A stretch of 64,000 bases of DNA, from positions 128,001-192,000 of the forward strand of contig JBCBUK010000001.1 in NCBI GenBank assembly GCA_039818205.1. The letters are read 5' to 3'. This DNA is from Verrucomicrobiota bacterium (lineage in GTDB: Bacteria > Verrucomicrobiota > Verrucomicrobiia > Opitutales > Cerasicoccaceae). The notes beneath the pieces were generated by a model. That model was not told the origin of the DNA and searched no databases. It worked only from the letters and a program-made list of their open reading frames with translations. Each line of letters opens with the position of its first letter. Position 1 is the first letter of the stretch. A program made the translations under genes and the position numbers. Of this stretch, positions 11,871 through 36,832 are shown in pieces.

Positions 11871-12153
11871 TGGGTATGACGCGATAGACACTGTTGAGTC
11901 CTTGCTATCGAAAATTGCCAACATATACCAAATGCGACATGAGATCTTTCGCCAACGTAGCTTGCGACTGAAAATCAATTAGCAAAGAACTGTTTAATTG
12001 TCTTACGTCCACGACTACCTGCTTGATTCAGGAACTTTCAAGCTCCTCGCAGCGCCTACCAAAAGATAACTAGTTATGGCGTGAAGCATCTCAAATATCC
12101 GTATAGATTCATGGGAGTATTTCTAAAATCCCACCGCATGATTTTCCTTGCTG

Positions 12154-13665: not shown

Positions 13666-13763
13666 ATGCCTGTGCGTTGAAAGCAAGAGAGCGCAGCCGA
13701 TATTGGCCACGCTCTCAGAAAAAGTCTGTCACTCAGCAAGTGCCAAGCAAGAAGCATGGGCTA

Positions 13764-14723: not shown

Positions 14724-14883
14724 AGATTGCTCTTGAGTTCCTAGAAGGATCATACGAATAAATCGCGCTTCCAAGCAAAATATCTAACGATACCAATGCC
14801 AGAAAAATTCGGATAAAGTGCGCCGAAAAGCCCCCAAAGCACACCGTCAACGGGAGTAAAGCGGCTCCTTTGGCCCGCCAGGC

Positions 14884-16584
14884 CTACCAGAACATTAGAT
14901 AGAGGACCACGGTTAGCAGGACGACTCCTACCCCGCACATTTTGGCAAATGGTGACGACGTGACGTCAATCTCCTTGTTTACTGGCATCTCGACGGGTTC
15001 CTTCAGTGGGGTAAACAGGGTCAAGGCAACGCCAGTCAGTACTACCACGATCAGGGTAATCGACATGCGGATCAGGAAGGCGACGTCACCCGCAAACAGT
15101 AGCAATGCCCCGTAAACAACAACACTGGTGATAATGCCAATCTTACCGAAGCTGCGAGGCGTCTTGGGGGAGAAGAAGCCAAAGATGAATACCGTTAGAA
15201 ATCCTGGAGAAATGAACCCCTGAAACTCCTGAATGTAGGCAAAGATACTGCGGAAGTTGTCCAGATAGGGAGCAACCAGAGCGGCGATCAAAGCGAATCC
15301 AACTACCATACCGCGACCGACTTTGACCAACCGTGCCTGATTCTTGTCATTAGCGACCTTTGAATAGAGGTCGATCGTCGCCAGGGTCGAGGCGGAGTTC
15401 AGCATAGAAGCGAGCGAGCTGATCACCGCCCCACATAACGCTGCCAAAACGAACCAGGAAATCAGCGGGATGGGTTTGATCAAATTTCGGACCAATACCG
15501 GAAAGGCGCGGTCATAGTCATATTCTCCCGTGGAACTATTGAGGAGATCTCCACTGAAAAGGTTGTAACATATGATGCCAGGTATCACTACCAGGAACGG
15601 GATAAGCAGCTTAAGAAAGGCTGCAAAAACAATTCCCTTCTGGCCTTCCGCCAGAGATTTGGCACCGAGCGTTCGCTGAACGATAAACTGATTCAATCCC
15701 CAGTAGAAGAAATTTGGAATCCAGATGCCGAGCAAAAGTGCTGTCCACGGCATATCGGGATCGTTCGCCGGGCGAATCATGTGCAATTTACCACCGGCTC
15801 CATTTACACCTACGATTGCAACACCTTCACCGTCAACCCCATCATTCAGCAGCACAAAACGCTCCCACGGACCAGCGTTTTCAAGGTCCTCAACAGTCGC
15901 GTTCGAATTAGCGACTTTGGATTCAATCAATTCTTCGGCCGGTTTTTCCGCCAGGTAATGGAACGCCATCACCGAGACAATAATACCCCCAACAATCAAG
16001 GCAGCTCCCCAAATGAGATCTGTCCAGGCACACGCCTTCAATCCACCAATAAACACGTATACTGCTGCCAATATTGCGATCGCCCAACACATCGCTGGCA
16101 AACTGCTCAAAATCGGAACGTCGTTATAGTATTCGGAAACAAACTTTGCACCGGAAAAAATCACCGTGGACGTGTTAACTAACACCAACGTGATCACCGC
16201 AGGAATCGACATCGCCAAACGCGCGACGCCATCATACCGATACTCCAAGAACTCAGGAATTGTGTAGAGCCCACATTTTAGAAAACGGGGCAAAAACCAA
16301 AAAGCCACAACGACCAACGTGATCGCGGCAATCCATTCCCACGCGGCAATCGCCAGGCCTTGCCGATCGGCCGCGCCGCCCGACATGCCGACAAACTGTT
16401 CGGTCGAGATATTCGCGGCGATTAGCGAGAACCCAACTAACCACCAAGTTAGGCCTCGGCCCGCCAAAAAGTAATCGGAAGCTCCCTTCTCCCCGTCGGT
16501 TTCCTCATCGCGGCTTTTCCAAATTCCCAGCGCAATGACGCCAATAACAGCAGAGATAAACAGGACAATTTCTAATACGTTCAT
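14884..16584 (-). CDS. Sodium:solute symporter (SSS/SLC5, sugar type)
   Basis: YFLAGRGLTWW, AANISTEQFVGMSG, YWGLNQFIVQRTLGAKS; about 14 TM helices. Confidence 0.95.
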   Translation of the reverse strand: MNVLEIVLFISAVIGVIALGIWKSRDEETDGEKGASDYFLAGRGLTWWLVGFSLIAANISTEQFVGMSGGAADRQGLAIAAWEWIAAITLVVVAFWFLPRFLKCGLYTIPEFLEYRYDGVARLAMSIPAVITLVLVNTSTVIFSGAKFVSEYYNDVPILSSLPAMCWAIAILAAVYVFIGGLKACAWTDLIWGAALIVGGIIVSVMAFHYLAEKPAEELIESKVANSNATVEDLENAGPWERFVLLNDGVDGEGVAIVGVNGAGGKLHMIRPANDPDMPWTALLLGIWIPNFFYWGLNQFIVQRTLGAKSLAEGQKGIVFAAFLKLLIPFLVVIPGIICYNLFSGDLLNSSTGEYDYDRAFPVLVRNLIKPIPLISWFVLAALCGAVISSLASMLNSASTLATIDLYSKVANDKNQARLVKVGRGMVVGFALIAALVAPYLDNFRSIFAYIQEFQGFISPGFLTVFIFGFFSPKTPRSFGKIGIITSVVVYGALLLFAGDVAFLIRMSITLIVVVLTGVALTLFTPLKEPVEMPVNKEIDVTSSPFAKMCGVGVVLLTVVLYLMFW

Positions 16585-17809: not shown

Positions 17810-19795
17810 ATGTCGCAACATTTTCTTTTCTCCTTCGTTTCTACCAATCTCCTGCGAGTCGCAGCTCTGAGCTACTTCATCGCTTTTTCCTACCTCGCAT
17901 CCTTGTCGGCCGAGCCGATTGACTACTATGCTCCACATCCTTTTGGAACCGAAGGAAACGCCAACCAATGTGATAACACTGCAATTGGGAAATGGTGGAT
18001 CGAGCGTGATGGTGAATGGGGCCACGATAAGGATGGTCGCAAATGGTTCCTCGAGAGAGAGCGCGAAAAGGCCTTGGCATTCGTTCTATACACTCATGAC
18101 GATCGCGTCCTCAAGCTAACCGCACAAACCTTTCCCCTTTACCCGGAAGAACCAAAAACGATCACGCTCGAATTTTTCCGAGATGGCCAGTGGCAACCCG
18201 TCGCTCAAGAACCGATTCAATACCCGGGCTGGTCCGCACACTTTCGAATCGAGAACTGGGATAACTCGCAGGACGTTCGCTACCGAGCACGCCTCGGCGA
18301 CCTTTCCAGCTACGAGGGATTAATTCGCAAAGACCCTGCAGATAAAGAATCCATCGTTGTTGCCTCCATGTCATGCAACTCGCCCAAGGATAAGACCCGG
18401 TATGAACGCATGGAGCTCACAAACAATTTGATAATGCATGACCCCGACTTGTTGTTCTTCGCTGGCGATCAAAACTACACGCACGATGAGCACACTTACG
18501 GTTGGCTCATGTGGGGAGTTCACTATGCAGCCGTGACCAAAGATCGGCCCACGATAACCATCACCGATGATCATGACATTGGGCACGGAAACCTCTGGGG
18601 TGCCAACGGAAAGGTATCACTGATCCAAGGCAATGCCGACGGCGGGTACAAATACCCAGCCAGTTTCGTCAACATGGTGCAGCGATGCGAAATGTATCAC
18701 CTCCCTGATACATTTGATCCGCAACCTATTCTTCAGGATATCTCCGTCCACTACACTGACCTGACACTCGGCGGCATCAGCTTTGCCATCCTGGAAGACC
18801 GGAAGTTCAAAACCGGTCCGTACGGACGCATTCCCCAAATGGGACCGCGCCCCGACCACATTAACGATCCCGACTATGACCGGTCCGGGGTTGACCTCGC
18901 AAACCTGAAACTACTTGGCGACCGTCAACTGAAGTTTCTCGATGCGTGGGCTCGCGATTGGTCGGACAGCTCGATGAAAGTGGTGCTCTCACAAACGGCA
19001 TTCTGTGGGGCCGTCCATCTCCATGGTGATGCATCTAACCGCCTCCTCGCTGACCTTGATTGCAACGGCTGGCCGCAAACTGGTCGCGACCGCGCCGTTC
19101 GCGCGATTCGCCGGGTCAAAGGAACGCATCTTTGCGGCGATCAACATTTAGCAACGGTATTGAAGCACGGTATTGACGACTTTCGCGATGGTCCGATGGC
19201 CTTCACCGGGCCCGCCCTTGTGAATACCATCTACGGGCGCTGGTGGTGGCCGTTAGACGAAGCAGCTGGTGGTGGCGCACCAATCGACAGCCCCCTGCCT
19301 TGGGTGGGCGACTACGAAGACGGTTTGGGTAATAAGATCACGATGTTCGCCTACGCAAACCCCGAATACCAAAAGACCAAGGAGCTCAACAGCGACCCCG
19401 CTCGCGAGAATCGCGGCGATGGCTATGGCTTGGTTCGATTCAACAAGGCGACTCAAGACATCACCTTTGAATGCTGGCCGCGATTCGCCGATCTATCGCA
19501 GGGTGATGCGGCTCAGTTCGAAGGTTGGCCGATCACGTTCAACATGGACCTAAACGATGGTCGAGAGCCAATTGCTCATCTTCCTTCCGTCATCCTGCCC
19601 CATGCCAACGCGGTCGTCCAGCTAACCGACCAAGCTACCGGCGAACTCATCTACTGCTATCGCCTTCAGAATCAAGCGGGCGAGGCCTATGAGGCACCGA
19701 TTTTTACCAGCAGTGCCTACCAGCTCGCAATTGGACAAAGCCAGCCAGACACCGTGCTACTCGACAACATAAACATCCTCGTCGAAGACCAATAG
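17810..19795 (+). CDS. PhoD-like alkaline phosphatase/phosphodiesterase (PVC-type)
   Basis: ASMSC, FFAGDQNY, DDHDIG, EDRKFK and LCGDQH metallophosphoesterase motifs; N-terminal export signal. Confidence 0.75.
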   Translation: MSQHFLFSFVSTNLLRVAALSYFIAFSYLASLSAEPIDYYAPHPFGTEGNANQCDNTAIGKWWIERDGEWGHDKDGRKWFLEREREKALAFVLYTHDDRVLKLTAQTFPLYPEEPKTITLEFFRDGQWQPVAQEPIQYPGWSAHFRIENWDNSQDVRYRARLGDLSSYEGLIRKDPADKESIVVASMSCNSPKDKTRYERMELTNNLIMHDPDLLFFAGDQNYTHDEHTYGWLMWGVHYAAVTKDRPTITITDDHDIGHGNLWGANGKVSLIQGNADGGYKYPASFVNMVQRCEMYHLPDTFDPQPILQDISVHYTDLTLGGISFAILEDRKFKTGPYGRIPQMGPRPDHINDPDYDRSGVDLANLKLLGDRQLKFLDAWARDWSDSSMKVVLSQTAFCGAVHLHGDASNRLLADLDCNGWPQTGRDRAVRAIRRVKGTHLCGDQHLATVLKHGIDDFRDGPMAFTGPALVNTIYGRWWWPLDEAAGGGAPIDSPLPWVGDYEDGLGNKITMFAYANPEYQKTKELNSDPARENRGDGYGLVRFNKATQDITFECWPRFADLSQGDAAQFEGWPITFNMDLNDGREPIAHLPSVILPHANAVVQLTDQATGELIYCYRLQNQAGEAYEAPIFTSSAYQLAIGQSQPDTVLLDNINILVEDQ

Positions 19796-19909
19796 GTACG
19801 GACTCAGGCCCATAGTTGGGAGGATGAGTTGGTTGCGGGTTTTGTATCTTTTATGTTACGCGGAAAGTGATCCTTGTCGCGATGCCCACATCCCACTAAT
19901 CGAAGGCCC

Positions 19910-20413
19910 ATGAAATCACGTTATTACGCGATTGTTGCGGTTGCCACATTGGGACTCGTCATTGGCTTATCTGGAAGCAATCGAGCCTCTGGGAACACTA
20001 GCGACCTAGAGGCAAGCTTCACGCCCAAGGAAAAGGAACTCGCTTCTTACATGGCCGAGCTCCAGGTGCTGAGCCACAAACTGGGTCTATCGATCGATGC
20101 CGATAACGAACCGCTCATCAAATTTTACCTTCACGAGTCCAAAGTGAAAATCGAGGAGATTCAAAATGAGTTACCGGAATACGAGGGCGTACCCGTGGCA
20201 CTCTATATGGACCGTATGGCATGGCCCGCCTACAAGAGCCTCGACCAAGCGCTAGCATCGAAATCTGGATACAACTCGAAGGCGGTTAGAGAAGCGTATC
20301 GTGTGTTGATCAACTCTTGCAATGCGTGCCACATTAGCTCCGAGCACCCATATATCCGCATCAAACACAATAAGTCGAATCCTTACCTACAAGACTTCGC
20401 CGCTCAAGATTGA
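19910..20413 (+). CDS. Exported monoheme c-type cytochrome (helical, cytochrome c'-like, C-terminal CxxCH)
   Basis: N-terminal signal/TM; single NSCNACH near the C-terminus; helical body (YMAELQ..HKLGLS..FYLHE). Confidence 0.75.
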   Translation: MKSRYYAIVAVATLGLVIGLSGSNRASGNTSDLEASFTPKEKELASYMAELQVLSHKLGLSIDADNEPLIKFYLHESKVKIEEIQNELPEYEGVPVALYMDRMAWPAYKSLDQALASKSGYNSKAVREAYRVLINSCNACHISSEHPYIRIKHNKSNPYLQDFAAQD

Positions 20414-20418
20414 TTGGT

Positions 20419-21462
20419 ATGAAACCGTATCCTTTAAGATTAGCTTTGCCGCTCGGAATGGTCGCGTTACTCGTCCGGCCAACTCCTGGGATTGCCCAGG
20501 AAGTTACCAACAATCGACCGCATATTTTGGCAATTAAGTCAGAGTTCATCGCCAACCGTGAAGAATCTACCATCGTGAACTCCTTGGGCTTCATGGTCGA
20601 AACCGACGGTTTTCTTCTCTGCTGCTACGAACAGATCATCGACCCGGCAAGCGGCGAACTATCCCATTCGATCCAAGTCATCTCGCCTGAGATAGACGAC
20701 TACGAACCACAACCGGCCAGCATTATTGGTGTTGAGCCTACCTTGAATTTTGCGGTCCTCAAAATTGACACCAGCGACGAGCTTCGCAAAAGCCAACTTG
20801 CTGATGAGATTCTACTGACTAAATACGATGCCGTCGGCACCTATCGACTCCGCGACGAAGAAATTGCCGATATCGAAGGCGAATTTCTCCAAATGAATGA
20901 GCTCGAGTGTTACCAACAAAGCCTTACTGGATCGATGATGAAAGCACGACTCGGTCTCGACCAATCAAGCTTTGGTGCCCCGGTTTTTGATGCGAGCGGT
21001 GAAGTCATAGCGGTCTACACTGGCTATGAGCCGATAGACCCATCGTTGGATGAAAACGAAGAGCAAGGCGACTATCTGTTGCCAATTACCTTGGCCAACA
21101 CAGTTTACCAAAGCATCAAAGAACGCCAGAGTCTCGAGTCTCCCTGGACCGGATTTTCGGTTAGTCGCCTTAGCGACGAGGAAAGATCTATTTTCCCACT
21201 CAACAATGGACAGATCAAGGGAGGGATTCGCATTGAACATATTTGGGAGGGTGGCCCTGCCGAAGGGCTCGGAATCCAATCTGGAGACATCCTCGTTAAG
21301 TTCGCTCACAATCCTGTCGAATCCGTCGGCGACTTTCAAAAATGGCTCTATCTTTATGGCGTCGGTCAATCCGTGAAACTGTATCTGATCCGCGACCGCA
21401 AAGAACTCGTCATCATCGAATACACGATCGAAAAACGCCCGGATTGGGCGCGTCCTGAATAG
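20419..21462 (+). CDS. HtrA/DegP-like trypsin-fold + PDZ protein, catalytic triad absent
   Basis: GFMVETDGFLL, IIGVEPTLNFAVLKI, FGAPVFDASGEVI; PDZ PWTGF..GGPAEGLGIQSGDIL. An alternative TTG start at 20410 overlaps the cytochrome stop. Confidence 0.8.
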   Translation: MKPYPLRLALPLGMVALLVRPTPGIAQEVTNNRPHILAIKSEFIANREESTIVNSLGFMVETDGFLLCCYEQIIDPASGELSHSIQVISPEIDDYEPQPASIIGVEPTLNFAVLKIDTSDELRKSQLADEILLTKYDAVGTYRLRDEEIADIEGEFLQMNELECYQQSLTGSMMKARLGLDQSSFGAPVFDASGEVIAVYTGYEPIDPSLDENEEQGDYLLPITLANTVYQSIKERQSLESPWTGFSVSRLSDEERSIFPLNNGQIKGGIRIEHIWEGGPAEGLGIQSGDILVKFAHNPVESVGDFQKWLYLYGVGQSVKLYLIRDRKELVIIEYTIEKRPDWARPE

Positions 21463-21463
21463 A

Positions 21464-21499
21464 AAGAAAAAGGCCTCATCCCATGCGAGACGAGGCCTT
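21464..21499. terminator. Terminator between convergent genes
   Basis: AAGGCCTC...GAGGCCTT stem preceded by an A tract (U tract on the minus strand). Confidence 0.6.
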
Positions 21500-21523
21500 C
21501 CCAAAGTAACCGAGCGACCACTC

Positions 21524-24500
21524 CTATTCGTAGTTCACTCGGAAGAAAATTTCGGGCTCAGTCGCGGGAGTTAGCATATAATCATACTCGATCTCCTCGT
21601 AGTCGCCAGTGGTGGTGATCGTCGCATCATTCTCCCAATTGGGAACTTCGATCCAGCTCATTGGATCCAGCGTTGTGCTTCGCTCGAGCTTTGCCTGCTC
21701 AGGAACGGAGCCACTCAGCGGCCGGAAAAAGCTGATTTGGACTTGCAAGGGCGCTGGCGAACCAAAGTCCAACAATGGGCCACTAACACCGTTGGCACTG
21801 GTGTTGGTTAGGAAGTGCAGATAGTTCGAGACGCCGTCAAAGTTGGGATCGGCATTGGGGCTAGTGTCCGTTCCTTCAAGCAACTGCTCGAGCGTGAACT
21901 GCTCGGCAACAAATTTTTCATAAGTGGTATCTCCTGCTGACAAGAAAATCGCATCGGCAAACTGATAGAAGTCGATGAATGGATTTCGGTTGAACTGCCC
22001 CAAGACATTACCACCACCAACATCGACGCCTTCATAGATCTGGTTATTTCTCTCAATTTCGTAGGCGGTCGGTGGAAAGGCCCGATTCCACTCCAGGAGT
22101 GTTGAAAGAATACCCATTTCACTTGATCCCGAAGGACTGTCCGAAAGCATCAGGTTCGTTGTCGAAGGATCCGATCCATCGTAGCGAACCATCATATAGA
22201 ATACGGCTCGTGCGACCATTCCCTTGTCCCGATCAAGTGGCTCCCAAGAGTTGGAATCGCGGGTTGATTCCGGCGCAAACGAATTCGATGTGGTTCCACC
22301 GGTACTTTCGTCGAATGGCAAATTCGAACGCAGGCTGTTTACATCTGACTGGCACGGGAACAGGCTATGCAGATCAGAATGGTCCGGTCCGTTGTCACCG
22401 ACACCCAGGCTGCGAGGCCACACGTGTTCGCGGTTCCAGCTACCCGAGCTTTTCGACAGCGTGGCCAACGAATATATCAGACGAATTGCACTGGAGTCGG
22501 ATTCATCCTCATCGATCACCCGGAATACATCAGGCGCATCGCCATAGCTCACTTGTGTATGGTCATCAATAATATCATGGAGCGCGTTTTGCAACGCGGT
22601 GCCCGTCAAGCCTTCGGCACTCTGGTAGTAAGACAAGAGCACCTGAGCATTCACCGGCACAAATAGATCGACGTAAACCAAGTGGTGGTCGGAAACCGCT
22701 GCAATGCCCTCAGGGCTTGGCCAGAACACCCCGGCGCCGGTGATCGTCTGATTCGCCGATGGCAATGCGTAGTCAACCCGTAGACCACCCACGAAGTCCG
22801 CGGTATCCGATGGCTCGGGACCACCAATACCCGTCGGAACAATCGTGTTATTGATCAGGGGCTCATCAGTAAACTGAAGCGCTGCGTCAGCCGTGCTGTC
22901 GCCCTCATCTGGATCCGCATTGTAGTCGCCCAGGATGACAAACTTTTCGCCGCCTGTGAAGCCACCCGTTGGACTTGGCGGTGTTGTGTTTCCGGCCGAA
23001 ATTAACTCGGCGTCATCGTAAATATAACTCTCACCTTTGATGTAATCGGCCCAGAATCGAATCTCATCGTGATTACGGCGGCCATTCTCATCAACGATGG
23101 TCGGATTCGCGAAATCGGTCTCCGTTCCATCGTCAAACGCCGGAGGCGTTGGGTGAGCGCAGAGGGCATGAATTGTTTCGGAACCCACCAAGATTGGCAC
23201 ATCCCAATGGCTTTTCGAGGACAGGCGAAATACATCTTGCTCAGCCGCTGTGTAGTAGTTGCCCGTGTCAAAATCGCCGTCGGAGTCCAGCGGATCCGGC
23301 GGCAGAAGATTATTGGGCATGTCTTTCCACAAGAACTGCTGGAACGTGCGGATGCCCGAGTAATTAATTGGATACTTTGACAGGAGCACCATGCCGTATT
23401 GACCTTCGTATTCGCCAAAGCCAAACGCATCATCGCCGTAAGCCTGCGAGCCCGGCGTCGAGACCACGGAGCCATTGTTGTCCAGGTCAAATCCTGAATG
23501 GACTCCCGTATTAACCGGCGCAAGATAGGTGTACCCATAGTAAACTGGGCTCTGACCATTCTGAGGAACAGCAAGGTAGTTATCCAGGAAGTTGCGCAAT
23601 GCTTGGCCACCCGAATCATAGTCAAATTCATTGATCAAGATAACGTCAGCGTTGTTGATCTGGATAATTTCGGCGACCTCATTGATGTGAGTGGTATTCG
23701 TGATCGAGGTCGCCGCGATGAGTCCATTTGGAAACTCCGCCATGGATCCGTTGAAGGTTGCGAAGCGGATTGAAGATGGCTCATTCACCACATCGCTATT
23801 GATATCGATCGTGACTGAATCGAACACATGTGAAACGCCGTCGAATGCCTGGATACGAATCACGTATTGGCTGCGCACGGAAGTATCGATATTACTTGCG
23901 TCATTGATCGTGATCACCCCTGAATTCGGATTGATGCGGAAAGCCGGACCGCCGCCGTTGGCCTCCATAAAGCACATCTGAGCGCCCTGGACCAAGTTAT
24001 TGGCCGCAATCAGACCGTCCGTTACCGAGTGGGCTTGGACGTTGAACAGGAACAAGGAACCGCCGGCCTCCCCAAACAGGCTTGAAACGTCTAAGATGCC
24101 CGATGATTCCCAGTTTCCGAGGTCATTGGTGCTGCCATCCGTAGAACCCAATGGAAGGACAACGTCGCGGCACATCTGGGCAATGCGAGTCGCTTGGCCA
24201 GTTGTGGAGTCGACCTTCCAGATCGAGGTTTCCTGGCCCGAGTTGGCAAAATCCGTCGTCGCCCCGCCAGCTCGGTCTTCTTGGATGTAGAGGAAATTGT
24301 CATCGGCCCAGTCGAGGTTGTCTGGATTGCGAAGTCCTTGCTCTGAGCTAAAGAACTGCCCACCACCCTGATCGTCCGCATCGTAAAGCAGATCGATATC
24401 GGCGGTCGGCGCACCCAGGTTTGTGAAATCAACATCAACGATGTAGATACAGCCCCATTTATCAAACGGGAACAAGTTGCCTCGCCCGGTGCTGGCGAAC

Positions 24501-27500
24501 GCAAAACGGGTCCCATCATTCGGGTCAGTCGCCAAGTCTTCCGGACGTGAGAACGAAAAGCCGCCGAGAGAATCCGATTCCGAACGCATGGTTGTGCCAT
24601 CCTTGTAACCAGCGGAATCATGGCCCGCTTGACCGGCCTGGGATACGTCCTGTGGATCAATCTCAACAAAGGTTCCCGCACGGTTTGATCCCGTGCCAAA
24701 AAACTGCTGAGGGGTGGTATTTCCATTGTCTGCCCGCCAAACATAAAGCGTTCCAAACTCCAAACCATTCCGTGCGAGGAAGCTACTCGAAGCCAGGCCA
24801 TCCTTATCCTTACCCTTCTCACCCACATAGAGGTAGAGTGGCGCGCTCTCAAGGTCATCGCCGAGCACAAATGCGACGTGAGTCGTCGTTCCCGTATCGA
24901 GTAGCGCAACATTCTCCCACGAGCCACGCCCCATTGCCGGTACCGCGTAAAAGCCTCCGCTGGCAACGTCGAGTGCCCAGACAGTGCCACCATGCGCACT
25001 ACCAAATGTCTTAGCGGCTTCCTCACCATTCATGTAGATGCGATCAGCAAGACCGCGACCAGCTCCGAAAGAATTGGCTTCGTAGAGCGAGCTGGAACAC
25101 ATCCGATCGAATCCTTCGGTCGCATGCCCACGCTCATTGATTTGCGACGCAGCCGTAACGATATTTCCACTGCGATCGTAGATTGTATCGTACGCGTATC
25201 CGCCATCAACGACGCTGCGGGTTGCCTTGTCGATATCCAAGTAGGAAACGCGCGCACCCGTAATCGAAGTTCCATTGGCCAGTTGATAGGCGTAGCCCTG
25301 TTCTGGTTCGATCTCGTGATTGAAGAAGACCCGGACGGTGTCCACATCCAGCTCGTAAGCGCCAATACCATCGAAGACACCCACGGGGCTAAAGTTTCCC
25401 GGTGTATTGGAATTCAGAGCACCAGAGGCTCCACTAACCGCATCGCCCGCGGTAAAGACCGGCGTAATCTTGAACCCAGCACCAGCAACTGGCTTCATTT
25501 TCGTTGGTGCCGCATCCCCGGCAAGAATCGCATATTGGAAACCTTCGTTCCCGACAATTGCGCTGTTCAAATCACCGATCACCGTGCCAGACAATGCGTT
25601 CTCGGATGTGGTAAAAGGCCCAACCGTGTCAATCGCTGGAGTCGTCGTGGTGAAATCATATGTCGTGGTATCAACAATGCCCGCGAAGCTGTTACCCGAT
25701 GTATCAAGCACGGCGCCGGCATCAACCTGAACATAGTAGGATGTGGCAGGATCAAAATTCGCCGCCGGATTGATTGTTAGTGTTCCGAGGTTGGCCGTAA
25801 CCTGCGGAGTGGTGACATCAATTGTTTCGACAATGCTGTTGTTGCTGGAACGGCGAATGGTTATGTTACCGGTTCCCTTCTGAATGATCTCGTTAAAGTT
25901 GATTAAGAGGTTGGAGTTTACGATGACTCCAATCGCGTCATCGGATGGGTCGAAGCTAGCAACAACCGGTGCAGTGGTATCCGTAACCGCCGATTCGGTT
26001 ACCTCAAGGGTCAAGCTTGGGTTGCCGGGATCAAAGGTATTGTTGAGACCCGAATAGGTAATCGCATCGAGCGAACCGACTGCGGCAATGATTATGCTGA
26101 ACTCGGCTCCATTCTGCAATTGCGCCAATAAGTCCGCTTCTACACCGCTCAAATCGAGAGTAAAGGTGTCTTGCGCCCCACCCGCTTGCGCCGTGTAAGG
26201 AAACTGGCCAAGCGATACCGGCGTGTAGGTAAACTCAGAATTATCAATCCCATTGATCACCGCCAAAGTATTCGTCAAGCCAGCATAGTTTCCATTGTAA
26301 GTATCGGTGGTTAGGAAGAATTCGACGGTCGCCGTCGCCGAAGTAAAGCTGCGGTCATTATGTGTCAGCGTTAAGTCCGCACTCACAATGTTGTCGATCT
26401 GCTGCGCACCGTTGAGCGCGAAGTCCAAATTGGAGAACTGGAAACTAGCGATACTGTAGATGGCGAACTGGCCTTGACCACTTCCCTCTGCATAGAATTC
26501 AGTTGAACCAATGTCGCCACCCGTTCGAATACCTGCCAGGGCAAACAGATCCTTGGTCGCCGTGGCATCCGGGGTCACTGCGCCAATATCCGTGAGGAAG
26601 TTCCAAATAGTTTTGTCACTGAATCCGGCGAATGCATTTCCGGCAGTATCTTCGATGGCGCCGCCGTCGATCTGAACATAGTAATCCGTGTTGTCGGCAA
26701 ACGTTCCAGTTGGGTCGACGGTTATCGTGTCACCATTGATACTAACCTTTCCGGAACCAATTGATACGGTTTCGAATGTTGAATCGTCGCCGGTAAGTTT
26801 GATGGTGATGTTGCCCGAACCAGCAGCAATATTTTCATTGAACGTGATCTCCAGGTTCGCGTTGTTTGCGACCAGGTTCGAATCATCGGCGGGTGAAAGC
26901 GTGACCAAATTTGGAGCAGTAAGATCCGGCGCCGCTGTGGAAAAATTCCAGCTCGTAGTATCGCTTATCCCGGCAAACGCATTAGCGGAAACATCTTCAA
27001 TCGCCCCGTTGTCGATCTGAACGTAGTAGGCAGTACTCGTATCCAAGTTGCTGGTCAGATCAATCGTCACCGAAGCGTTGTTGATGGTGACGTTACCGGA
27101 GCCAATCGCTACCGTTTCGACGACCGAGTCGTTAGATGCCAAGTGAATGACAATGTTGCCGGTGCCGGCTTGGACGTTTTCGTCAAATGTGATCACCAAG
27201 TTGCCATCGATGGCAAAGTCTGCCCCGTCATCAATGGGACTCAGGCTGGCAATTGAGGGCGGCGTCGAATCATTCGAATTCGTCGCCGAGATTCCGAGTT
27301 CAAGGTTTGGATTGCCAGGATCGAATGTGTTATTCAGGCCCGCGTAGGTAATCGAGTCACTCGCGCCAACAGGGGCGATAATGATACTGAACTCACCCTC
27401 CGCGTTCAACTGCGCCAAGACACTCGACTCAACGCCACTTAGATCCAGCGTGAATTGATCTTGAACACCACCAGTCGCAGCGGTGTATGCAAATTGGCCG

Positions 27501-29287
27501 AGTGAAACGGGCACGTTTGAAAACTCAGTATCGTTGATCCCATCGACTTCATTGGTATCAAATGCGAGCCCCGCAAAGTTTCCAGAAAACCCATCCACGG
27601 TGAGGAAGAATTCAACCGTTCCGGTAGGCGTCGTGAACGTACGGTCGTTGTGAGTCAATGTCAGCACCGCCGAGGTAATGTCGTTGATCGTTGCCCCAGC
27701 GCTCAACCCAAAGTCCGACTTCGTGAACGAGAAACTAGCGATACCGTATTCTGAGAAACTGCCGTTTCCATTACCCTGACCATAGTATTCAGTCGAGGAA
27801 GTCACGCCACCTGAGTGAATGGCACCCGCGGCAAACAAATCCTTGTTTGCGTTGTAAGTATTCGCAGTGCCAGAGAAGACAATATTATCGAAGCGGATCA
27901 ATTCAGAGCCCGCATTGTTCTGGATACGAATAACGAGCTGTAAGGTCGAGCCGTTGAGCCCAGTAACCGAACCGGTTCCCGAGGTGAACGCTTCTTGAAA
28001 GTCCGCAAAACTGGTTTCAGAGCCTCCATCCAAAACGTAGAATGCCTGCAGGTAGTCACCACTTTCGTGCCCGCCTGTTTCGCTGGCGTCAAAGGTGATC
28101 CCAACATTGGTAAAATCGTCAATATTCACGACCGGTGAACGCCAAATAACTTCGCCGTCGACGTCACGTGCTTCCATGACTTCCGAAACAACTTGAAGCC
28201 AATCGGTCGTGGCCGTTAGGGCACCACCCGCAACATCGACGGTCCAATCAACACCTGCGGTATCAACCGTGGGCGTTGGTCCGACGGCTCCTTTATTGTT
28301 TTGGCCGGTGAAGTCTTCGGCATAAATCTCGGTACCACTGCCGCCACCGAGAGCGACCGTAGTAAAACTCCAAGTAGTCGCATCGGCAATGCCCGCAAAT
28401 GCATTGCTTGAAGTATCTTCAAGCGCGCCACTATCGATCTGAACGTAATAGCCAGTGTCATTGGCTAGATCACTGGTGGGGTTAATTGTAACCGTATCAT
28501 TGGCAATCGATACATTTGCTGAACCAATCGCGAGTGTCTCGACGGTTGAGTCGTCGGATTGAAGTTTGACCGCGACATTACCGGTGGCAGCCTGGACATT
28601 TTCGTTGAAGATCGCGACGAGGTTTGCATCGACCGCAACACCAGTTGCATCATCAGACGGGCTAAGAGTCGAAATACTTGGCGGAGTAACATCCGCACCG
28701 CCGCTAGCCGTGAAATCAACCGTTAAAGCGGATACCTCGACTCCGTCACTCCCACCATTGACATTCACGGTAAAGCCAACGGTCAATTCGTCTCCACTGG
28801 TAACCGCCACATTCGAGAAGGCGTTTCCTACGTCGGTTCCAGCAGCTACGGGACCACCGAGAGCTGTCTCATCAAGGAAGATCGTTACCGGTGCGTTCGA
28901 ATTGATTTGGTAAAACCAAGTAATGCCCTCGGTCCCCACGTTGTTGAAAACATCGGTACCAATCGTGAGTGCCGAACCGACAATATCGACGGTTCCGTTG
29001 CTGGTAATGTTGATCGGGTCACTGGTGATCGTACCGTCCCCACCCCAATCTTGGACCCGCATAACGCCACCCACGGTAATAAACTCGTTTGTCGAGCCAT
29101 CGCTTGATGGAGAGCTGAACGTTAGCTCCCAGTTGGTTCCAGCGACCGGGCTGCTTTCCAAGGCGTCACCGGCGGTGTCGTGGGTACTGCCTTGGCTGGC
29201 CGTAGCAAAGTCTGCTGTGTAAATAGTCACGCCAAGAGTCCAGCTGGCGCAAAGAAGCGAGGTGAGTAGGAGAAGCGAAGTCTTCAT
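21524..29287 (-). CDS. 2587-aa secreted multidomain enzyme: Ig-like (SbsA/Big_5) repeats, PhoX-type phosphatase, EEP phosphodiesterase, endonuclease I (Bsn-type His-Me)
   Basis: Signal peptide; four D-T-P...F-EN..G-G-I Ig repeats; PhoX motifs FDRMCS, SRPED, NPDN, IQED, WESSG, NVQAH; EEP motifs FATFN, INEFD, HPTPP, GDYNAD, SDH; EndoI motifs WNREHVWPRS, DLHSL, KGMVARAVFYM, NRNPFID. Confidence 0.88.
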   Translation of the reverse strand: MKTSLLLLTSLLCASWTLGVTIYTADFATASQGSTHDTAGDALESSPVAGTNWELTFSSPSSDGSTNEFITVGGVMRVQDWGGDGTITSDPINITSNGTVDIVGSALTIGTDVFNNVGTEGITWFYQINSNAPVTIFLDETALGGPVAAGTDVGNAFSNVAVTSGDELTVGFTVNVNGGSDGVEVSALTVDFTASGGADVTPPSISTLSPSDDATGVAVDANLVAIFNENVQAATGNVAVKLQSDDSTVETLAIGSANVSIANDTVTINPTSDLANDTGYYVQIDSGALEDTSSNAFAGIADATTWSFTTVALGGGSGTEIYAEDFTGQNNKGAVGPTPTVDTAGVDWTVDVAGGALTATTDWLQVVSEVMEARDVDGEVIWRSPVVNIDDFTNVGITFDASETGGHESGDYLQAFYVLDGGSETSFADFQEAFTSGTGSVTGLNGSTLQLVIRIQNNAGSELIRFDNIVFSGTANTYNANKDLFAAGAIHSGGVTSSTEYYGQGNGNGSFSEYGIASFSFTKSDFGLSAGATINDITSAVLTLTHNDRTFTTPTGTVEFFLTVDGFSGNFAGLAFDTNEVDGINDTEFSNVPVSLGQFAYTAATGGVQDQFTLDLSGVESSVLAQLNAEGEFSIIIAPVGASDSITYAGLNNTFDPGNPNLELGISATNSNDSTPPSIASLSPIDDGADFAIDGNLVITFDENVQAGTGNIVIHLASNDSVVETVAIGSGNVTINNASVTIDLTSNLDTSTAYYVQIDNGAIEDVSANAFAGISDTTSWNFSTAAPDLTAPNLVTLSPADDSNLVANNANLEITFNENIAAGSGNITIKLTGDDSTFETVSIGSGKVSINGDTITVDPTGTFADNTDYYVQIDGGAIEDTAGNAFAGFSDKTIWNFLTDIGAVTPDATATKDLFALAGIRTGGDIGSTEFYAEGSGQGQFAIYSIASFQFSNLDFALNGAQQIDNIVSADLTLTHNDRSFTSATATVEFFLTTDTYNGNYAGLTNTLAVINGIDNSEFTYTPVSLGQFPYTAQAGGAQDTFTLDLSGVEADLLAQLQNGAEFSIIIAAVGSLDAITYSGLNNTFDPGNPSLTLEVTESAVTDTTAPVVASFDPSDDAIGVIVNSNLLINFNEIIQKGTGNITIRRSSNNSIVETIDVTTPQVTANLGTLTINPAANFDPATSYYVQVDAGAVLDTSGNSFAGIVDTTTYDFTTTTPAIDTVGPFTTSENALSGTVIGDLNSAIVGNEGFQYAILAGDAAPTKMKPVAGAGFKITPVFTAGDAVSGASGALNSNTPGNFSPVGVFDGIGAYELDVDTVRVFFNHEIEPEQGYAYQLANGTSITGARVSYLDIDKATRSVVDGGYAYDTIYDRSGNIVTAASQINERGHATEGFDRMCSSSLYEANSFGAGRGLADRIYMNGEEAAKTFGSAHGGTVWALDVASGGFYAVPAMGRGSWENVALLDTGTTTHVAFVLGDDLESAPLYLYVGEKGKDKDGLASSSFLARNGLEFGTLYVWRADNGNTTPQQFFGTGSNRAGTFVEIDPQDVSQAGQAGHDSAGYKDGTTMRSESDSLGGFSFSRPEDLATDPNDGTRFAFASTGRGNLFPFDKWGCIYIVDVDFTNLGAPTADIDLLYDADDQGGGQFFSSEQGLRNPDNLDWADDNFLYIQEDRAGGATTDFANSGQETSIWKVDSTTGQATRIAQMCRDVVLPLGSTDGSTNDLGNWESSGILDVSSLFGEAGGSLFLFNVQAHSVTDGLIAANNLVQGAQMCFMEANGGGPAFRINPNSGVITINDASNIDTSVRSQYVIRIQAFDGVSHVFDSVTIDINSDVVNEPSSIRFATFNGSMAEFPNGLIAATSITNTTHINEVAEIIQINNADVILINEFDYDSGGQALRNFLDNYLAVPQNGQSPVYYGYTYLAPVNTGVHSGFDLDNNGSVVSTPGSQAYGDDAFGFGEYEGQYGMVLLSKYPINYSGIRTFQQFLWKDMPNNLLPPDPLDSDGDFDTGNYYTAAEQDVFRLSSKSHWDVPILVGSETIHALCAHPTPPAFDDGTETDFANPTIVDENGRRNHDEIRFWADYIKGESYIYDDAELISAGNTTPPSPTGGFTGGEKFVILGDYNADPDEGDSTADAALQFTDEPLINNTIVPTGIGGPEPSDTADFVGGLRVDYALPSANQTITGAGVFWPSPEGIAAVSDHHLVYVDLFVPVNAQVLLSYYQSAEGLTGTALQNALHDIIDDHTQVSYGDAPDVFRVIDEDESDSSAIRLIYSLATLSKSSGSWNREHVWPRSLGVGDNGPDHSDLHSLFPCQSDVNSLRSNLPFDESTGGTTSNSFAPESTRDSNSWEPLDRDKGMVARAVFYMMVRYDGSDPSTTNLMLSDSPSGSSEMGILSTLLEWNRAFPPTAYEIERNNQIYEGVDVGGGNVLGQFNRNPFIDFYQFADAIFLSAGDTTYEKFVAEQFTLEQLLEGTDTSPNADPNFDGVSNYLHFLTNTSANGVSGPLLDFGSPAPLQVQISFFRPLSGSVPEQAKLERSTTLDPMSWIEVPNWENDATITTTGDYEEIEYDYMLTPATEPEIFFRVNYE

Positions 29288-29400
29288 TGGAGATCAAAAA
29301 TGTCGGCGGAAAATTGAAACGATATTGTGGCCCGAGTTGAATGCCTGGCCGTGATCGTGAAATTCAGGTGAAAGTTGCGATGCGATCCTTCAGAAAACAC

Positions 29401-29430
29401 TCATGGCCGCTAATCGCTTAGCGGCCATGA
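29401..29430 (-). terminator. Stem-loop between PEP-CTERM gene and megaenzyme gene
   Basis: TCATGGCCGCTAA-tcgc-TTAGCGGCCATGA 13-bp stem; TTTT lies a few nt downstream on the minus strand. Confidence 0.65.
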
Positions 29431-29456
29431 GGCATGTAATTGTGTGTGCTGTCGGG

Positions 29457-30185
29457 CTAGCGGCGACGACGACGGATGGAGTAAGCGAGGGCGCATACGC
29501 CAAGGATCAAACCAACCGTGCCTGGCTCAGGAACCACGACCGCGTTTGGAGAGCCAATTGAAGAGATCGCTACCGTTGGATCGACATCAAAACTGGTGCC
29601 TGGAACCGCTGCGCCGGAGATGTTGTAAACGTCCGAACCTGCTGGATCGTTAATCGCGAACCACGCATCAGTTGCGCCATCGCGGAAAATCACCTGTGGC
29701 TCGTCGCCAGTGTATGCGAAATCCTGACCTCCAAGCTCCGTGCCGATCAAGTTCGCTTCGTCACCAACGCTGTCTGGAACACCGATTGCGTCAAAAATCG
29801 TTCCCAATGAAGAAACGTCAAGGCCGATGCCGTTATCGTTCGGGTCGATGTCAGTGGTGCCAATTGTTCCGGTGAAATCGGAAGTCAAAACGAATGTCAT
29901 CGAAGGATTCTCGAAGTCAGGAACCGAAACAACGAGAAGGCCATCGGCGTCGAAGTTACCGGATACCTGAGTAGCGCGATCAACGACACCAACAAAGGAG
30001 CCTGGATCCGCTTCTAGCGAAAGGACCCAACCGCTGAAAGCTGCCAAGGCAGTGCCTTTGAGCTCGACGTCTGTGTTCGCAGGATCGCCTCCGGTTGGAT
30101 TCGGGAAGAGTTCGTTAAAAACTTGAGCGTTTGCGGAAGTTGTGAGAACCGCAGCAGCTGCAATGAGTGATAGATGTTTCTTCAT
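29457..30185 (-). CDS. PEP-CTERM protein with a lamin-tail-like domain
   Basis: Signal peptide ..SANAQ; VFNELFPNPTGGD..VELKG; VPEPGT + TM + RRRRR. Confidence 0.88.
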   Translation of the reverse strand: MKKHLSLIAAAAVLTTSANAQVFNELFPNPTGGDPANTDVELKGTALAAFSGWVLSLEADPGSFVGVVDRATQVSGNFDADGLLVVSVPDFENPSMTFVLTSDFTGTIGTTDIDPNDNGIGLDVSSLGTIFDAIGVPDSVGDEANLIGTELGGQDFAYTGDEPQVIFRDGATDAWFAINDPAGSDVYNISGAAVPGTSFDVDPTVAISSIGSPNAVVVPEPGTVGLILGVCALAYSIRRRRR

Positions 30186-30894
30186 AATTTAGTCAGTAGG
30201 TCTTTTGAAAATTCGCTCTCAGTAAACGGTTTGTTTAGAACGATACAATTCCTGCAGTGTAAAAGGTCGGTCACACTCGACCCATTCGCGTAACACACTT
30301 CCAAACGGTCCTAGCTCGCGACTTAATCCAATGTTACAATCACGGAATAAACACACAGCTTCGAGCGTCTCAATTGGTGGCTAGGCACGGGTAAATCGAT
30401 CCCCCTTGAACCCAGTATCGATCTTCACGCGGACAAATTTGATAAACGAAAACGCTCCTGCGTAATCCTAATATACGATCCGCTTATACGACATGACGAA
30501 ATTTGACAAAAATGGAGAATTACAAATCCCAATAGGTCACAAATTACTCCTTAGGAAAACCGGGCTTTATCCGATAACATCGATGCAATTCGCGAAATAG
30601 ACTTTCGAAACGATCGACCAACGATCCTTTCAATAACCCCCTGATTAATAAACAGTTAAATGAAATTCGCTTAGAATTCACGGAGATCCCACCATCTTTC
30701 GCCAGACGCAAACTTGAAAATTATTCACAATCCCACCTTCATACTGCCAGCTAAGGTGATATGAAGTTCTCTGTATATAAAGCGGAAATTTCCCACGTCT
30801 CTCCCAACGCGTCCCCCTACGCGTATAGACAATTTTCCGTATTCATTGAGTCACCAGGTTTCCACTGTAAATCCCACCCTAGATCGTCACCCAA

Positions 30895-33800
30895 ATGAGA
30901 AAATGTCTCACCTTCTCACTCACTACTGTATTATTCATTCTATCGACGTGCATCGTTAACGCGCACGGATTCCGAGTCCTTGTTTTTACTAAGACCGCTG
31001 GTTTTCAGCATGGCTCAATTCCGGATGGAGTTGCGGCCGTTCAAGAGCTGGGCCTCGAACACGATTTCGATGTGACGGTTACCGACGACGCTTCGGTATT
31101 CATCAGTGAGCTTCCCAGCCACAATGCCGTGCTGTTCCTCAACACCTCAGGTGATGTGCTTAACGCTTCGCAACAAAGCACGTTTCAAGCGTGGTATCAA
31201 AGCGGTAGAGCCTTCGTCGGAATCCATGCGGCTGCAGATACCGAACATAACTGGCAGTGGTATCGCGACTTGGTCGGCGCGATCATCAGCAACCATTCGG
31301 GCATTGTGAATGCCGACGTTAAGTTTCTCGACCAGATCCACCCGATTACCAATATCACCAATCCAGTCACGTCGGAGCGCGTTGAGATCTGGCAAGCTAA
31401 CGATGAGTGGTATAACTTCCAAGCAAGCCCGCGAGGGGATGTTCATGTGCTGGCTATTGTGGACGAAGACACCTACTCTGGCGGCACCCATGGCGGAGAT
31501 CACCCAATTGCATGGTGCCAGGAATTCGATGGTGGACGGTCAGCATTTCTGGGAATGGGCCACACCAGCGAAATTTACGATGATCCGATCTTCCGTGACC
31601 TAATTACCAACGCGCTTGAATGGTCAGTTGGCGAATTCGGCGGCGACAGCCAAGCAACGATCGATAGCAACTATCAGGTTCAGGTCCTGGCAAATTTCAA
31701 CAACCCAATGTCGATCGATATCGACGACGATGGAAACGTTTACGTCATTGAGCGAACGACGGGAAATGTTCGTCGCTACAATCCGTCGAATGGGCAAACC
31801 ACCACGCTCGACAATATTTCGGTTTATTCCGGCGGGGAGTTCGGAATGCTGGGGATCGCCCTCGCACCGGATTTCTCAACAAGCAACCACATATACCTTT
31901 TCTATAGTCTGCCGCAAACGGGTGCAAATCAGCGCTTATCACGGTACACACTCACTGGCAGCGGTCTTACCGACGAACGCGTGATCTTGGAATTTCCGGT
32001 CGAACGTCCCGATACCCCAGGTGTTGGCAACAATCCACAAGGGCATCACCAAGCTGGCTGTATGCGTTTTGATGCTGACGGTAATCTTCTCATCAGCATT
32101 GGAGACAACACTGACGCCAGCGGATTTGCACCGCGCAACGACAACCGCTTGATCAAAGACGCCCGCCGCGCATCGGCCAACACCAACGACCTGCGTGGAA
32201 AGATCATCCGAATCAAGCCAGACGTCGGTCAAGGACCCGCCGCCCATCCCAACTACACCATTCCAGCTGGGAACCTCTTTTCACAGACGACCTCAACGGA
32301 GCGCGCCGAAATCTATGTCATGGGTGCGCGAAATCCCTTTCGCTTTAGCATCGATCCACACACTGGATGGCTCTACTACGGCGATGTCGGCCCAGACGCA
32401 CTTAACGACGGAGGCGGTTCGTTTCAGGGACCAGCTGGCCACGATGAATTCAATCAAGTGCGAAGCGCAGGAAACTTTGGTTGGCCCTACTACATCGGTT
32501 TCAACCGCGCTTATCGCGATGGCTCCGGCAACGAATGGACACCAGCAACCATAAGCTCCGATCTGAATTCATATTTCAATCGCATCGGCGTCACCGCAGA
32601 AACAACAATTCCCTCCCCGTTGCCAGCTTGGATAACCTACACCTATCTTAACCACCTTGGGTTTCCCGAGATGCGCAAACAGGCTGAAGGCATTCGCGAA
32701 GGTCGCGCCGTTATGGCTGGTCCGGTTTACGAATGGCGCGCAGGTGCCAGCGACAATGCTTTTCCGCGCTATCACGACAAGACAGTGTTTCTCTTTGACT
32801 TTACCCGTGGTCTCGTCGCTGAAGCCAAAACCGATTCTGACGGAAACCTGCTCGACCTGAAACGCTTCCTTCCAAATCAAGGTTTCTCCGGGCCTATCGA
32901 TATGATGTTTGGTCCCGACGGAATGCTTTACTATATCGAGCTCTACAACGGAAGTCTCCGCCGAATAGCCTACTCGGCCGGCAATCTGCGACCTACCGCC
33001 ATCGCTTCAGCCGACCAAACCTCTGGGCCACTTCCGTTGTCCGTTCAGTTTACTGGCGATCTATCCAGCGACCAAGAAGATGGAAGTAACCTGACCTATT
33101 CCTGGGATTTTGGTGACGGCACGCCTAACTCTAGTCTTCCTAACCCCAGCTACGTCTACCAGTTCCCAGGCACCTACAACGTGCAGCTTGTAGTCACGGA
33201 TACTGATGGGCTCTCCGCGAATACCAACTTGACGATCTATGCCGGCAACTCGGCCCCAACGATCGCATTCGACGCACCCTACAACAACTCATTCTTCGAT
33301 TGGGGAGATGATATCGGATTCGACATCGTAATTACCGACGCAGAGGATGGCTCAAGTGCCAATGGCGCCATCGACCCGGCCAATGTTTTGTTTGAAGGCT
33401 CTTTAGGACACGTTCGGCACCAACACAATGAATCGCAGATCAACGCGCTCCGCGGAACCGACGATGTCGCTCGCGACGACTCTCACGGTTTTGACGATGA
33501 CGTTTACTACGTCTTTGATGCGTATTTTACCGACCAAGGAGCCCCAGGTGTCGGACCAATCTCAGTGCAAGCAACCTCGACGTTGCGTCCCAAGATCTTG
33601 ATGGCTCAATTGTTTGACGAAAACCAAGGCGTGACCATCCAAGCTACACAGGACCCACTGGGCGGCGTCGAAGACGTATCGAGTATCGATGATGGAGACT
33701 GGATCTGCTTCCAGGCATTAAACCTCTACCAGATTGAAGCGTTGCGCTTCCGCTTAGCATCGGTCTTTGGAGGAACGATCGAGGTTCGATCCGGCTCGCC

Positions 33801-35835: not shown

Positions 35836-35870
35836 AATCTAAACAAACCTTTCGCGATTCGATCATATTG

Positions 35871-36713: not shown

Positions 36714-36832
36714 TCGATTCTGCGGATATCGGATAGATTCGTGCGTAAACAACACGACCTGAACGAGGAAATCCGGTAAACTAGAGCCTCCCAAGTATAC
36801 CTCAATCCAATAAGCCAAAATATCTCCATACT

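Follow-up and report, generated by a model that had tools for sequence, protein, structure and literature searches.

In a 64,000-nucleotide (nt) stretch of contig JBCBUK010000001.1 from a Verrucomicrobiota bacterium (positions 128,001 to 192,000; this whole stretch is hereafter the window), one giant open reading frame (ORF), P0001, encodes a chain of 2587 amino acids (aa) with a PhoX-like phosphatase, an EEP phosphoesterase and an endonuclease I (EndoI) domain. We regard P0001 as a real, conserved and apparently undescribed variant of the multi-domain phosphate-scavenging ectoenzymes. Its domain content, motifs, folds, family conservation and linkage to a neighboring gene pair are established. 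We read it as a co-tethered kit that would free phosphate from extracellular nucleic acids and other phosphoesters, with the gene pair helping the PhoX domain to obtain ferric iron; this reading we consider, on balance, narrowly probable. All three catalytic domains belong to known families, and giant phosphatase fusions with shuffled modules are widespread. A previous sequence-only reading of the same DNA had reported a secreted ORF of this length with these three enzymes. Our analysis bears this out: the frame is intact, a Sec-type signal is predicted, the earlier domain coordinates lie within about 50 nt of those re-derived here, and the order from the N to the C terminus is PhoX, EEP, EndoI.

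Domain content and conservation of P0001

The ORF and its parts, in order from the N to the C terminus, are as follows. Some entries refer to a homologue, P0121, and to the predicted local distance difference test (pLDDT) of a structure model.

21524..29287, minus strand: giant multi-domain ORF P0001, 2587 aa, ATG start, one frame, no internal stop
29231..29287, minus strand: Sec-type signal peptide, about aa 1-19, without a twin-arginine motif (read by eye)
28697..29230, minus strand: domain X1, aa 20-197, not common to the homologues among the matches listed
28352..28693, minus strand: Big_5 Ig-like domain 1 (Pfam)
27863..28345, minus strand: domain X2, aa 315-475, no assignment
27278..27862, minus strand: CBM96-like module Y1, aa 476-670 (predicted structure)
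26591..27271, minus strand: Big_5 domains 2 and 3 (Pfam)
25988..26575, minus strand: second CBM96-like module Y2, 59% identical to Y1
25643..25981, minus strand: Big_5 domain 4 (Pfam)
25502..25636, minus strand: cadherin N-half, aa 1218-1262 (halves contiguous in P0121; model strands at pLDDT 86-92)
23942..25501, minus strand: PhoX-like beta-propeller phosphatase, aa 1263-1782, inserted in a cadherin loop (profile, fold, motifs)
23783..23941, minus strand: cadherin C-half, aa 1783-1835 (family profile matches cadherins, best E 5e-4)
22652..23782, minus strand: EEP (DNase I-fold) phosphoesterase, aa 1836-2212 (Pfam, fold, motifs)
21923..22651, minus strand: EndoI-family His-Me nuclease, aa 2213-2455 (E2287, H2288, N2317, R2320)
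21527..21922, minus strand: C-terminal domain, common to many other proteins of the genome

A PhoX domain is easily overlooked in such giants, since Pfam misses it in the whole protein and members of this family go by database names such as 'endonuclease I' or 'Ig-like domain protein'. PF05787 was not seen on whole P0001 and matched the excised aa 1260-1785 with E 1.5e-12 (47.9 bits; gathering cut-off 24). Searches of PDB sequences by phmmer with whole P0001, its PhoX domain or its EEP domain gave nothing useful, so profiles and folds were needed for these two domains. A 56-sequence family profile matched Pseudomonas fluorescens PhoX (E 8e-9). It aligned with P0001 the positions E273, D292, R385, E387, D479 and D494 of that enzyme (3zwu; the numbers other than R385 and D292 are presumed), and all six are kept. 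The AlphaFold model of aa 1218-2212, covering PhoX, cadherin and EEP, was compact (pLDDT 85.9; predicted template modelling score, pTM, 0.83), and its top two Foldseek matches were PhoX structures of the six-bladed propeller type (4a9v, E 1.2e-20; then 4e-20). The PhoX motif residues of P0001 are E1325, C1397, E1422, E1458, D1478, R1581, E1583, D1656, D1671 and E1727. Ten PhoX ligand positions, including the Cys thiolate and the Arg, are conserved in 86-87 of 87 aligned proteins (roughly 52-70% identity), and 12 of 13 motif positions are invariant in all 87, the exception being E1325, which is E in 86. R385 and D292 are described as active-site residues of PhoX (PMC11098088).

A simple motif scan, in which some starts were uncertain, found a twin-arginine translocation (Tat) motif in the first 45 aa of none of 90 homologues, and none in P0001. 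Because the Tat signal typical of PhoX is missing, we class the domain as PhoX-like and not as canonical PhoX. We place its propeller within a cadherin domain. This split was inferred because the homologue P0121 has both cadherin halves contiguous, without interruption, and because profile matches in the PDB were to cadherin structures. A cadherin hidden Markov model (HMM) seeded from three other loci matched neither half, and an unrelated control scored best.

For the EEP domain, Exo_endo_phos (PF03372) was found on whole P0001 at aa 1864-2201 (E 1.9e-20), with no match among NCBIfam models or PDB sequences. Its catalytic N/E/H/D/N/D/D/H set (N1846, E1887, H2045, D2121, N2123, D2172, D2200 and H2201) is invariant at 8 of 8 positions in 87/87 proteins. 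In Foldseek this domain was closest to sphingomyelinases, TDP2 and PDE12 and not to nucleases of the DNase I type. This EEP subfamily is large, with at least 8000 members. A hand count among the 120 best matches to EEP plus EndoI gave 42 with phytase or phytase-like domains and four with EndoI, a count limited to proteins of 341-1085 aa, among which full-length members of the giant family could not appear.

Endonuclease_1 (PF04231, His-Me finger group 9) matched whole P0001 at aa 2228-2439 (E 3.2e-28), and the excised domain scored 106.7 bits against a Pfam cut-off of 25. The WNREHVWP and VNxxRxN motifs are conserved across the 87 proteins; seven of eight motif positions are invariant in all of them, and N2322 is N in 69. 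The match to Vibrio EndA/Vvn had E 0.003-0.006, and the NCBIfam DNase I model gave 29 bits, far under its cut-off of 372. As PF04231 includes both the DNases Vvn/Dns and the RNase Bsn (PMC5714182), the target may be DNA and/or RNA. That the catalytic motifs are retained, as the sequence-only reading stated, thus holds in all three domains. An assembly chimera was rejected on the homologues and on a single contig from run X1 (possibly the source sample) that spans 21183-30500 with zero differences within the giant ORF. A pseudogene was rejected on the conservation of catalytic motifs across the 87 aligned proteins.

A homologue search with aa 1260-2460 of P0001 gave 689 matches. Among the best 120, which were classified, 86 had PhoX-EEP-EndoI in that order, 11 had PhoX-EEP, 18 had PhoX only and five had other orders. 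By this count the architecture is no one-off but is shared by a family of at least 86 clusters, in all of which EndoI is fused and intact. The sequence-only reading had not recognized this order of enzymes; indeed, we found no description of the order, the cadherin insertion or the linked pair in open-access literature text, but the order is not singular. Named tri-domain members are all Verrucomicrobiota, from lake and marine settings. A GTDB scan (at least 80 loci) agreed, in that all of the listed loci spanning two or three domains through EndoI were Verrucomicrobiota; this taxonomic range is a lower bound. The gene is patchy: it was found in one of 401 sampled genomes of the phylum, its own, and not in any of five genomes of the same genus. 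In the family of genome G438, 20 of 145 genomes have it, counting matches of at least 56% identity and contig-end pieces; 15 genomes whose matches were confined to standalone EEP, EndoI or distant PhoX-like sequences were not counted. Among plasmids, three PhoX-like matches were obtained, all weak.

These comparisons mark PhoX-EEP as a generic shuffled core with a variable third module. One homologue, P0045 (4419 aa), carries the full PhoX-EEP-EndoI unit together with PhoD, YDG and Calx-beta domains. At L118:11016-18903, a PhoX-like-PKD-EEP-PEP-CTERM fusion, a separate EndoI gene and the adjoining gene pair all lie within about 10 kb, so EndoI associates with PhoX-EEP even when unfused. Standalone EndoI proteins with a C-terminus of the P0001 type are also present in relatives. 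In the genome of P0001, which is 99.97% complete, all three PF05787 matches lie in the giant gene and in its C17 paralogue (G000:C17:58620-68576; L001:6621-16577). This paralogue of about 3300 aa has the order Y, Big_5, two PhoX-like domains, EEP, 5'-nucleotidase, choice-of-anchor I, and it forms a divergent arrangement with genes for imelysin and a di-haem oxidoreductase (DHOR).

The N-terminal stalk had been described as Ig-like and unknown domains. Four Big_5 domains (Pfam on whole P0001, E 1.4e-70) and the domains X1 and X2 agree with this; the cadherin insertion and two CBM96-like folds had been missed. X1 matched no Pfam or NCBIfam model, no protein among the BLAST matches listed and not the family N-terminal HMM; X2 likewise matched neither Pfam or NCBIfam nor that HMM. 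One alignment of the N-terminal region, A7, was discarded as misaligned. A Y module modelled together with Big_5 reached pLDDT 93.7. The Y1 model matched a chondroitin-sulfate CBM (8wab; Z 13.8, root-mean-square deviation 4.1, 165 aligned) and an alginate CBM (7vbo; Z 13.4, deviation 3.5, 164 aligned), with other structures at Z 10.1 or less. The Atlas lead for Y1 was CBM96 (score 0.94; shared-feature count 147, below the 170 mark), and the Y modules had no Pfam PF24517 match despite their CBM-like fold. Judged from its model, Y1 is likely a binder of polyanionic matrix. At the other end of the chain, the family HMM of the C-terminal domain, applied to the genome at E<=0.01, also matches over 30 further ORFs, in most cases at the C-terminus. 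P0001 is thus likely to carry a sorting or anchoring module there, and it is likely exported by Sec. Across the genome this domain ends in an F-x-R-hydrophobic strand, with no Pfam or NCBIfam model, and it may be an undescribed Verrucomicrobial sorting signal.

The linked cytochrome c'-like and pseudo-HtrA genes

Two genes that the sequence-only reading did not mention lie beside the giant gene:

19874..20413, plus strand: cytochrome c'-like monohaem protein P0122, likely start 19910 (CxxCH, M and E invariant in 98/98)
20410..21462, plus strand: HtrA-like trypsin+PDZ pseudo-protease P0123, likely start 20419 (Pfam, alignment)

P0122 is a predicted exported monohaem protein. It had no Pfam match (the Atlas lead, PF01322, occurred in 14% of one cluster), and its PDB matches, to cytochrome c' and cb562, were only weak (best E 0.02-0.03). 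In P0123 the triad positions are E/N/F. Among 87 members of this pseudo-HtrA family, neither His nor Ser is one of the six commonest residues at the triad columns, Asp occurs in 14, and the Cys of a CYQ motif is invariant (87/87). An active protease was rejected, as the catalytic His and Ser are gone.

The pair lies directly downstream of the giant gene at six loci (L015, L016, L017, L019, L020 and L086), in both orientations, and the cytochrome gene does so at L014 too. In the G438 family, pseudo-HtrA was found in 21 of 145 genomes, namely 18 of the 20 with the giant gene and three of the 125 without it; these counts, like the other co-occurrence counts, include kin genomes and are not independent. 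Eighteen genomes have both genes, two the giant only and three pseudo-HtrA only. Among these five exceptions, G479 has the cytochrome gene at a contig edge and G557 has a giant-type C-terminus adjoining the pair. Thirteen of the 21 copies have a giant, PhoX-like or PhoD gene within 10 kb. Pseudo-HtrA was also found in four of the 251 genomes of the G437 family: two copies sit immediately beside another PhoX-like-EEP giant, which has only 26-27% identity to P0001, a third is next to a 5'-nucleotidase/choice-of-anchor I giant, and the fourth occurs in a genome that also has a tri-domain gene. Altogether the pair adjoins two other PhoX-like clades, only 26-27% identical. Of 15 metagenomic pair loci longer than 10 kb, some of them near-duplicates, 10 hold a PhoX-like or PhoD gene.

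Several pair loci showed further features. Distant pseudo-HtrA relatives that keep CYQ (L125:8768-10879, L132:1424-3556, L137:7596-9626 and L141:1646-3806) are fused to or adjoin a class I-type cytochrome c, and their N-terminal part, we presume, resembles the cytochrome domain of FTR1/PbrT-type iron permeases. At L151 (G330:C1:2337000-2356999) the pair is downstream of an Mn/Zn/Fe-type ABC transporter operon with an MntR/DtxR-family regulator and about 5 kb from a giant SdiA-regulated/LTD protein. Downstream of the pair at L097:12983-17800 are genes for an FAD oxidoreductase, a HAD hydrolase, an HD-like protein and DUF5690, which resemble a phosphonate-use cluster.

A proposed route to phosphate and its alternatives

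In the route that we propose, P0001 would be exported via Sec and retained via its C-terminal module. Its CBM96-like folds would keep it attached to slime or particles of polyanionic nature. EndoI would cut DNA and/or RNA to phosphorylated oligomers. EEP, as part of the generic PhoX-EEP core, would be a diesterase or phosphatase of broad range; its substrate is not taken as fixed, because the subfamily has phytase-type partners and the third module is interchangeable. The PhoX domain, with a predicted two Fe3+ and three Ca2+, would then release phosphate for Pst uptake. Maturation of PhoX by the cytochrome c'/dead-HtrA pair is the least certain step, which we put forward only tentatively. The benefit would come from co-localization and not from channelling; module shuffling favors co-tethering over channelling.

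The last step addresses a question of iron supply. PhoX and PhoD bind Fe3+ via Cys and are normally exported by Tat, and cytoplasmic iron insertion is only speculated on in the consulted part of the literature (PMC4223295). Because the family has no Tat motif (0/90), its PhoX metal site would form after export, and a haem protein with a chaperone-like dead HtrA fits this need. The pair might be a maturase that is dedicated to Sec-exported Fe(III)-thiolate phosphatases and works outside the cytoplasm, although we rate this as rather unlikely. The cytochrome would oxidize Fe(II), and the dead HtrA would hold the unfolded PhoX-like domain and guard its Cys, so that a 270-kDa nuclease-diesterase-phosphatase on a polyanionic matrix would be metallated outside the cell. 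We found no earlier description of a cofactor-assembly system for PhoX-type enzymes in open-access literature text; if true, this one would be the first. A family without Tat signals and with a tightly linked two-gene candidate helper makes the question of iron supply testable, and it bears on Fe-P co-limitation.

For the pair alone, an account with slightly better than even prospects is that it is a passenger of the same mobile island, regulated by phosphate or iron stress, with no role in PhoX metal loading. It could serve, for instance, in the export of giant secreted proteins at large, as a chaperone, or as a redox/NO-binding module. At L151, L173 and L176 the pair lies beside giant secreted proteins that showed no PhoX, exceptions run both ways among kin that are not independent, and the putative metal-binding His are missing in P0123. 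Against a passenger speaks that the linkage recurs in either orientation, across three or more named families, and with three PhoX-like clades that share only 26-27% identity with each other's reference. Haem proteins also accompany PhoX-like genes elsewhere: imelysin and DHOR lie beside the C17 paralogue, and a MauG-like protein goes with Flavobacterium phoX (PMC8115612).

The successive-step assembly line proposed in the sequence-only reading holds in part, as three intact phosphoester hydrolases do occur in one predicted exported chain conserved as a unit. In its strict form, EndoI would cut, EEP would be a dedicated exonuclease like Xds/ExeM, PhoX would strip mononucleotides and the fusion would couple the steps kinetically. 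The EEP-EndoI order and adjacency are fixed in 86 of the best 120 homologues, the scheme parallels Dns+Xds+PhoX of V. cholerae, and the PhoX-cadherin-EEP model is compact (pTM 0.83). But most members of the EEP subfamily either stand alone or are joined to phytase-type domains, and the sphingomyelinase, TDP2 and PDE12 matches of EEP do not point to a nuclease of the DNase I type. PhoX-EEP also occurs without any nuclease (11 of the best 120) and with other tails. We consider the dedicated sequential line improbable.

Equally doubtful to us is a set of independent tools that share only the secretion signal, stalk and promoter. PhoX and EEP would then serve for lipids, phytate or sugar phosphates and the nuclease for a different purpose, for instance to remodel biofilms, exclude DNA or supply nucleoside carbon and nitrogen. 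The modules are shuffled freely with PhoD, 5'-nucleotidase, GDPD, phytase-like and choice-of-anchor I domains, relatives have standalone EndoI with the same kind of C-terminus, and periplasmic EndoI proteins restrict DNA uptake (PMC5714182). Independence of the nuclease is at odds with its intact fusion in all 86 clusters and its proximity to PhoX-EEP in L118, and the phosphate-gene context also speaks against it.

A PhoD-like neighbor, a Pho-box-like repeat and PstS-type genes in the genome suggest a phosphate setting for the giant gene:

17810..19795, plus strand: PhoD-like metallophosphoesterase P0124, co-directional with the pair and upstream of it (via a C10 relative)
29457..30185, minus strand: small PEP-CTERM protein, directly upstream of the giant gene on the same strand (Pfam)
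29357..29373, minus strand: Pho-box-like direct repeat TTTCAC-N5-TTTCAC, 70-86 bp upstream of the ATG (weak evidence)

P0124 is 35% identical (E 8e-52) to a C10 stretch that scores as PF09423; it had no direct Pfam or PDB match, and BLAST against the canonical PhoD domain was not significant. The repeat is the sole match in the window, where 0.55 would be expected by chance; a similar site lies upstream of the giant gene in L014 and is absent in eight other family loci. Small PEP-CTERM or similar genes also precede the giant in L014, L016 and L018.

Several points weigh against the co-tethered kit with its helper pair. The activity, expression and localization of P0001 are all predicted. Four of the ten PhoX ligands were placed by motif, with presumed numbering, and only six by alignment. 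The usual partners of the EEP subfamily are phytase-type domains, and the third module after PhoX-EEP is interchangeable (none, EndoI, or 5'-nucleotidase plus choice-of-anchor I). The Pho-box pattern has 19 matches in the genome, and the other 10 intergenic ones precede no evident phosphate genes. With regard to the pair, P0123 lacks three His and one Cys kept in 83-86 of the 87 family members, and five other pseudo-HtrA copies of its subgroup also lack most of these residues. No phosphatase was seen in five of the 15 metagenomic pair loci longer than 10 kb. Neither partner of the pair was found in G482, which carries the giant gene; in G592, which has a PhoX-like-EEP giant, no pseudo-HtrA was found. 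Conversely, in G330 and G394 (98-99% complete), both of which carry the pair, no PhoX was found, with PhoD present elsewhere in both. Finally, recombinant Psip1 produced in E. coli was active once Fe3+ and Ca2+ had been added (PMC11098088), so a helper may not be needed.

Farther from the giant gene, the window holds sulfatase, ThuA-like and sodium:solute symporter genes (12148-16584) and, on the other side, two large ThuA/malectin/CBM6 proteins with an AraC regulator (30895-39352). This carbohydrate-use context is not conserved around the family loci. The genome also contains open frames of 16270 codons (G000:C1:377975-426784) and 9002 codons (C7:1891-28896).

Comparison with known systems

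Nucleic acids make up a large share of dissolved organic phosphorus. The tri-domain family would place the conversion of nucleic acid to phosphate in one chain in lake and marine Verrucomicrobia. With P. fluorescens PhoX (PDB 4a9v/3zwu; PF05787), P0001 shares the propeller fold and the six aligned ligand positions. It differs in its low identity (about 15%), in being a domain of a 270-kDa chain, inserted in a cadherin and without a Tat signal, and in that its activity is predicted. Psip1 of Prochlorococcus MED4 and Fjoh_2478 of Flavobacterium johnsoniae, likened here by their descriptions, are divergent PhoX-fold enzymes of low-phosphate niches and are standalone, unlike P0001. Psip1 requires Fe and Ca; it has Lys in place of R385 and no D292, whereas P0001 keeps both residues (PMC11098088). 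Fjoh_2478 is co-induced with a neighboring MauG-like haem protein (PMC8115612).

P0123 has an analogue in MamO of magnetotactic bacteria, an HtrA-family pseudo-protease that was repurposed for metal handling and binds metal (PMC4794232). The similarity is weak and at family level, through distant relatives; P0123 has no magnetosome context and lacks the conserved His of its own family.

The cyanobacterial and planctomycete fusions of PhoX-like domains with GDPD, phytase-like, EEP or 5'-nucleotidase domains belong to the same PhoX-like and EEP clades (43-54% identity). Phosphorus limitation induces proteins of such multi-domain phosphatase annotation classes in Nodularia (PMC9846622). None of these fusions among the matches listed has EndoI, and the tri-domain form occurred there only in records labelled Verrucomicrobiota.

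V. cholerae grows on DNA as a phosphate source via Dns, Xds and PhoX/UshA/CpdB (PMC4714964). This extracellular DNA pathway resembles P0001 in having an EndA-family endonuclease, a second phosphodiesterase step and PhoX, although EEP need not act like Xds; by analogy it makes the nucleic-acid reading of P0001 plausible. In V. cholerae the steps are carried out by separate proteins in two compartments, whereas in P0001 they would be joined in one chain.

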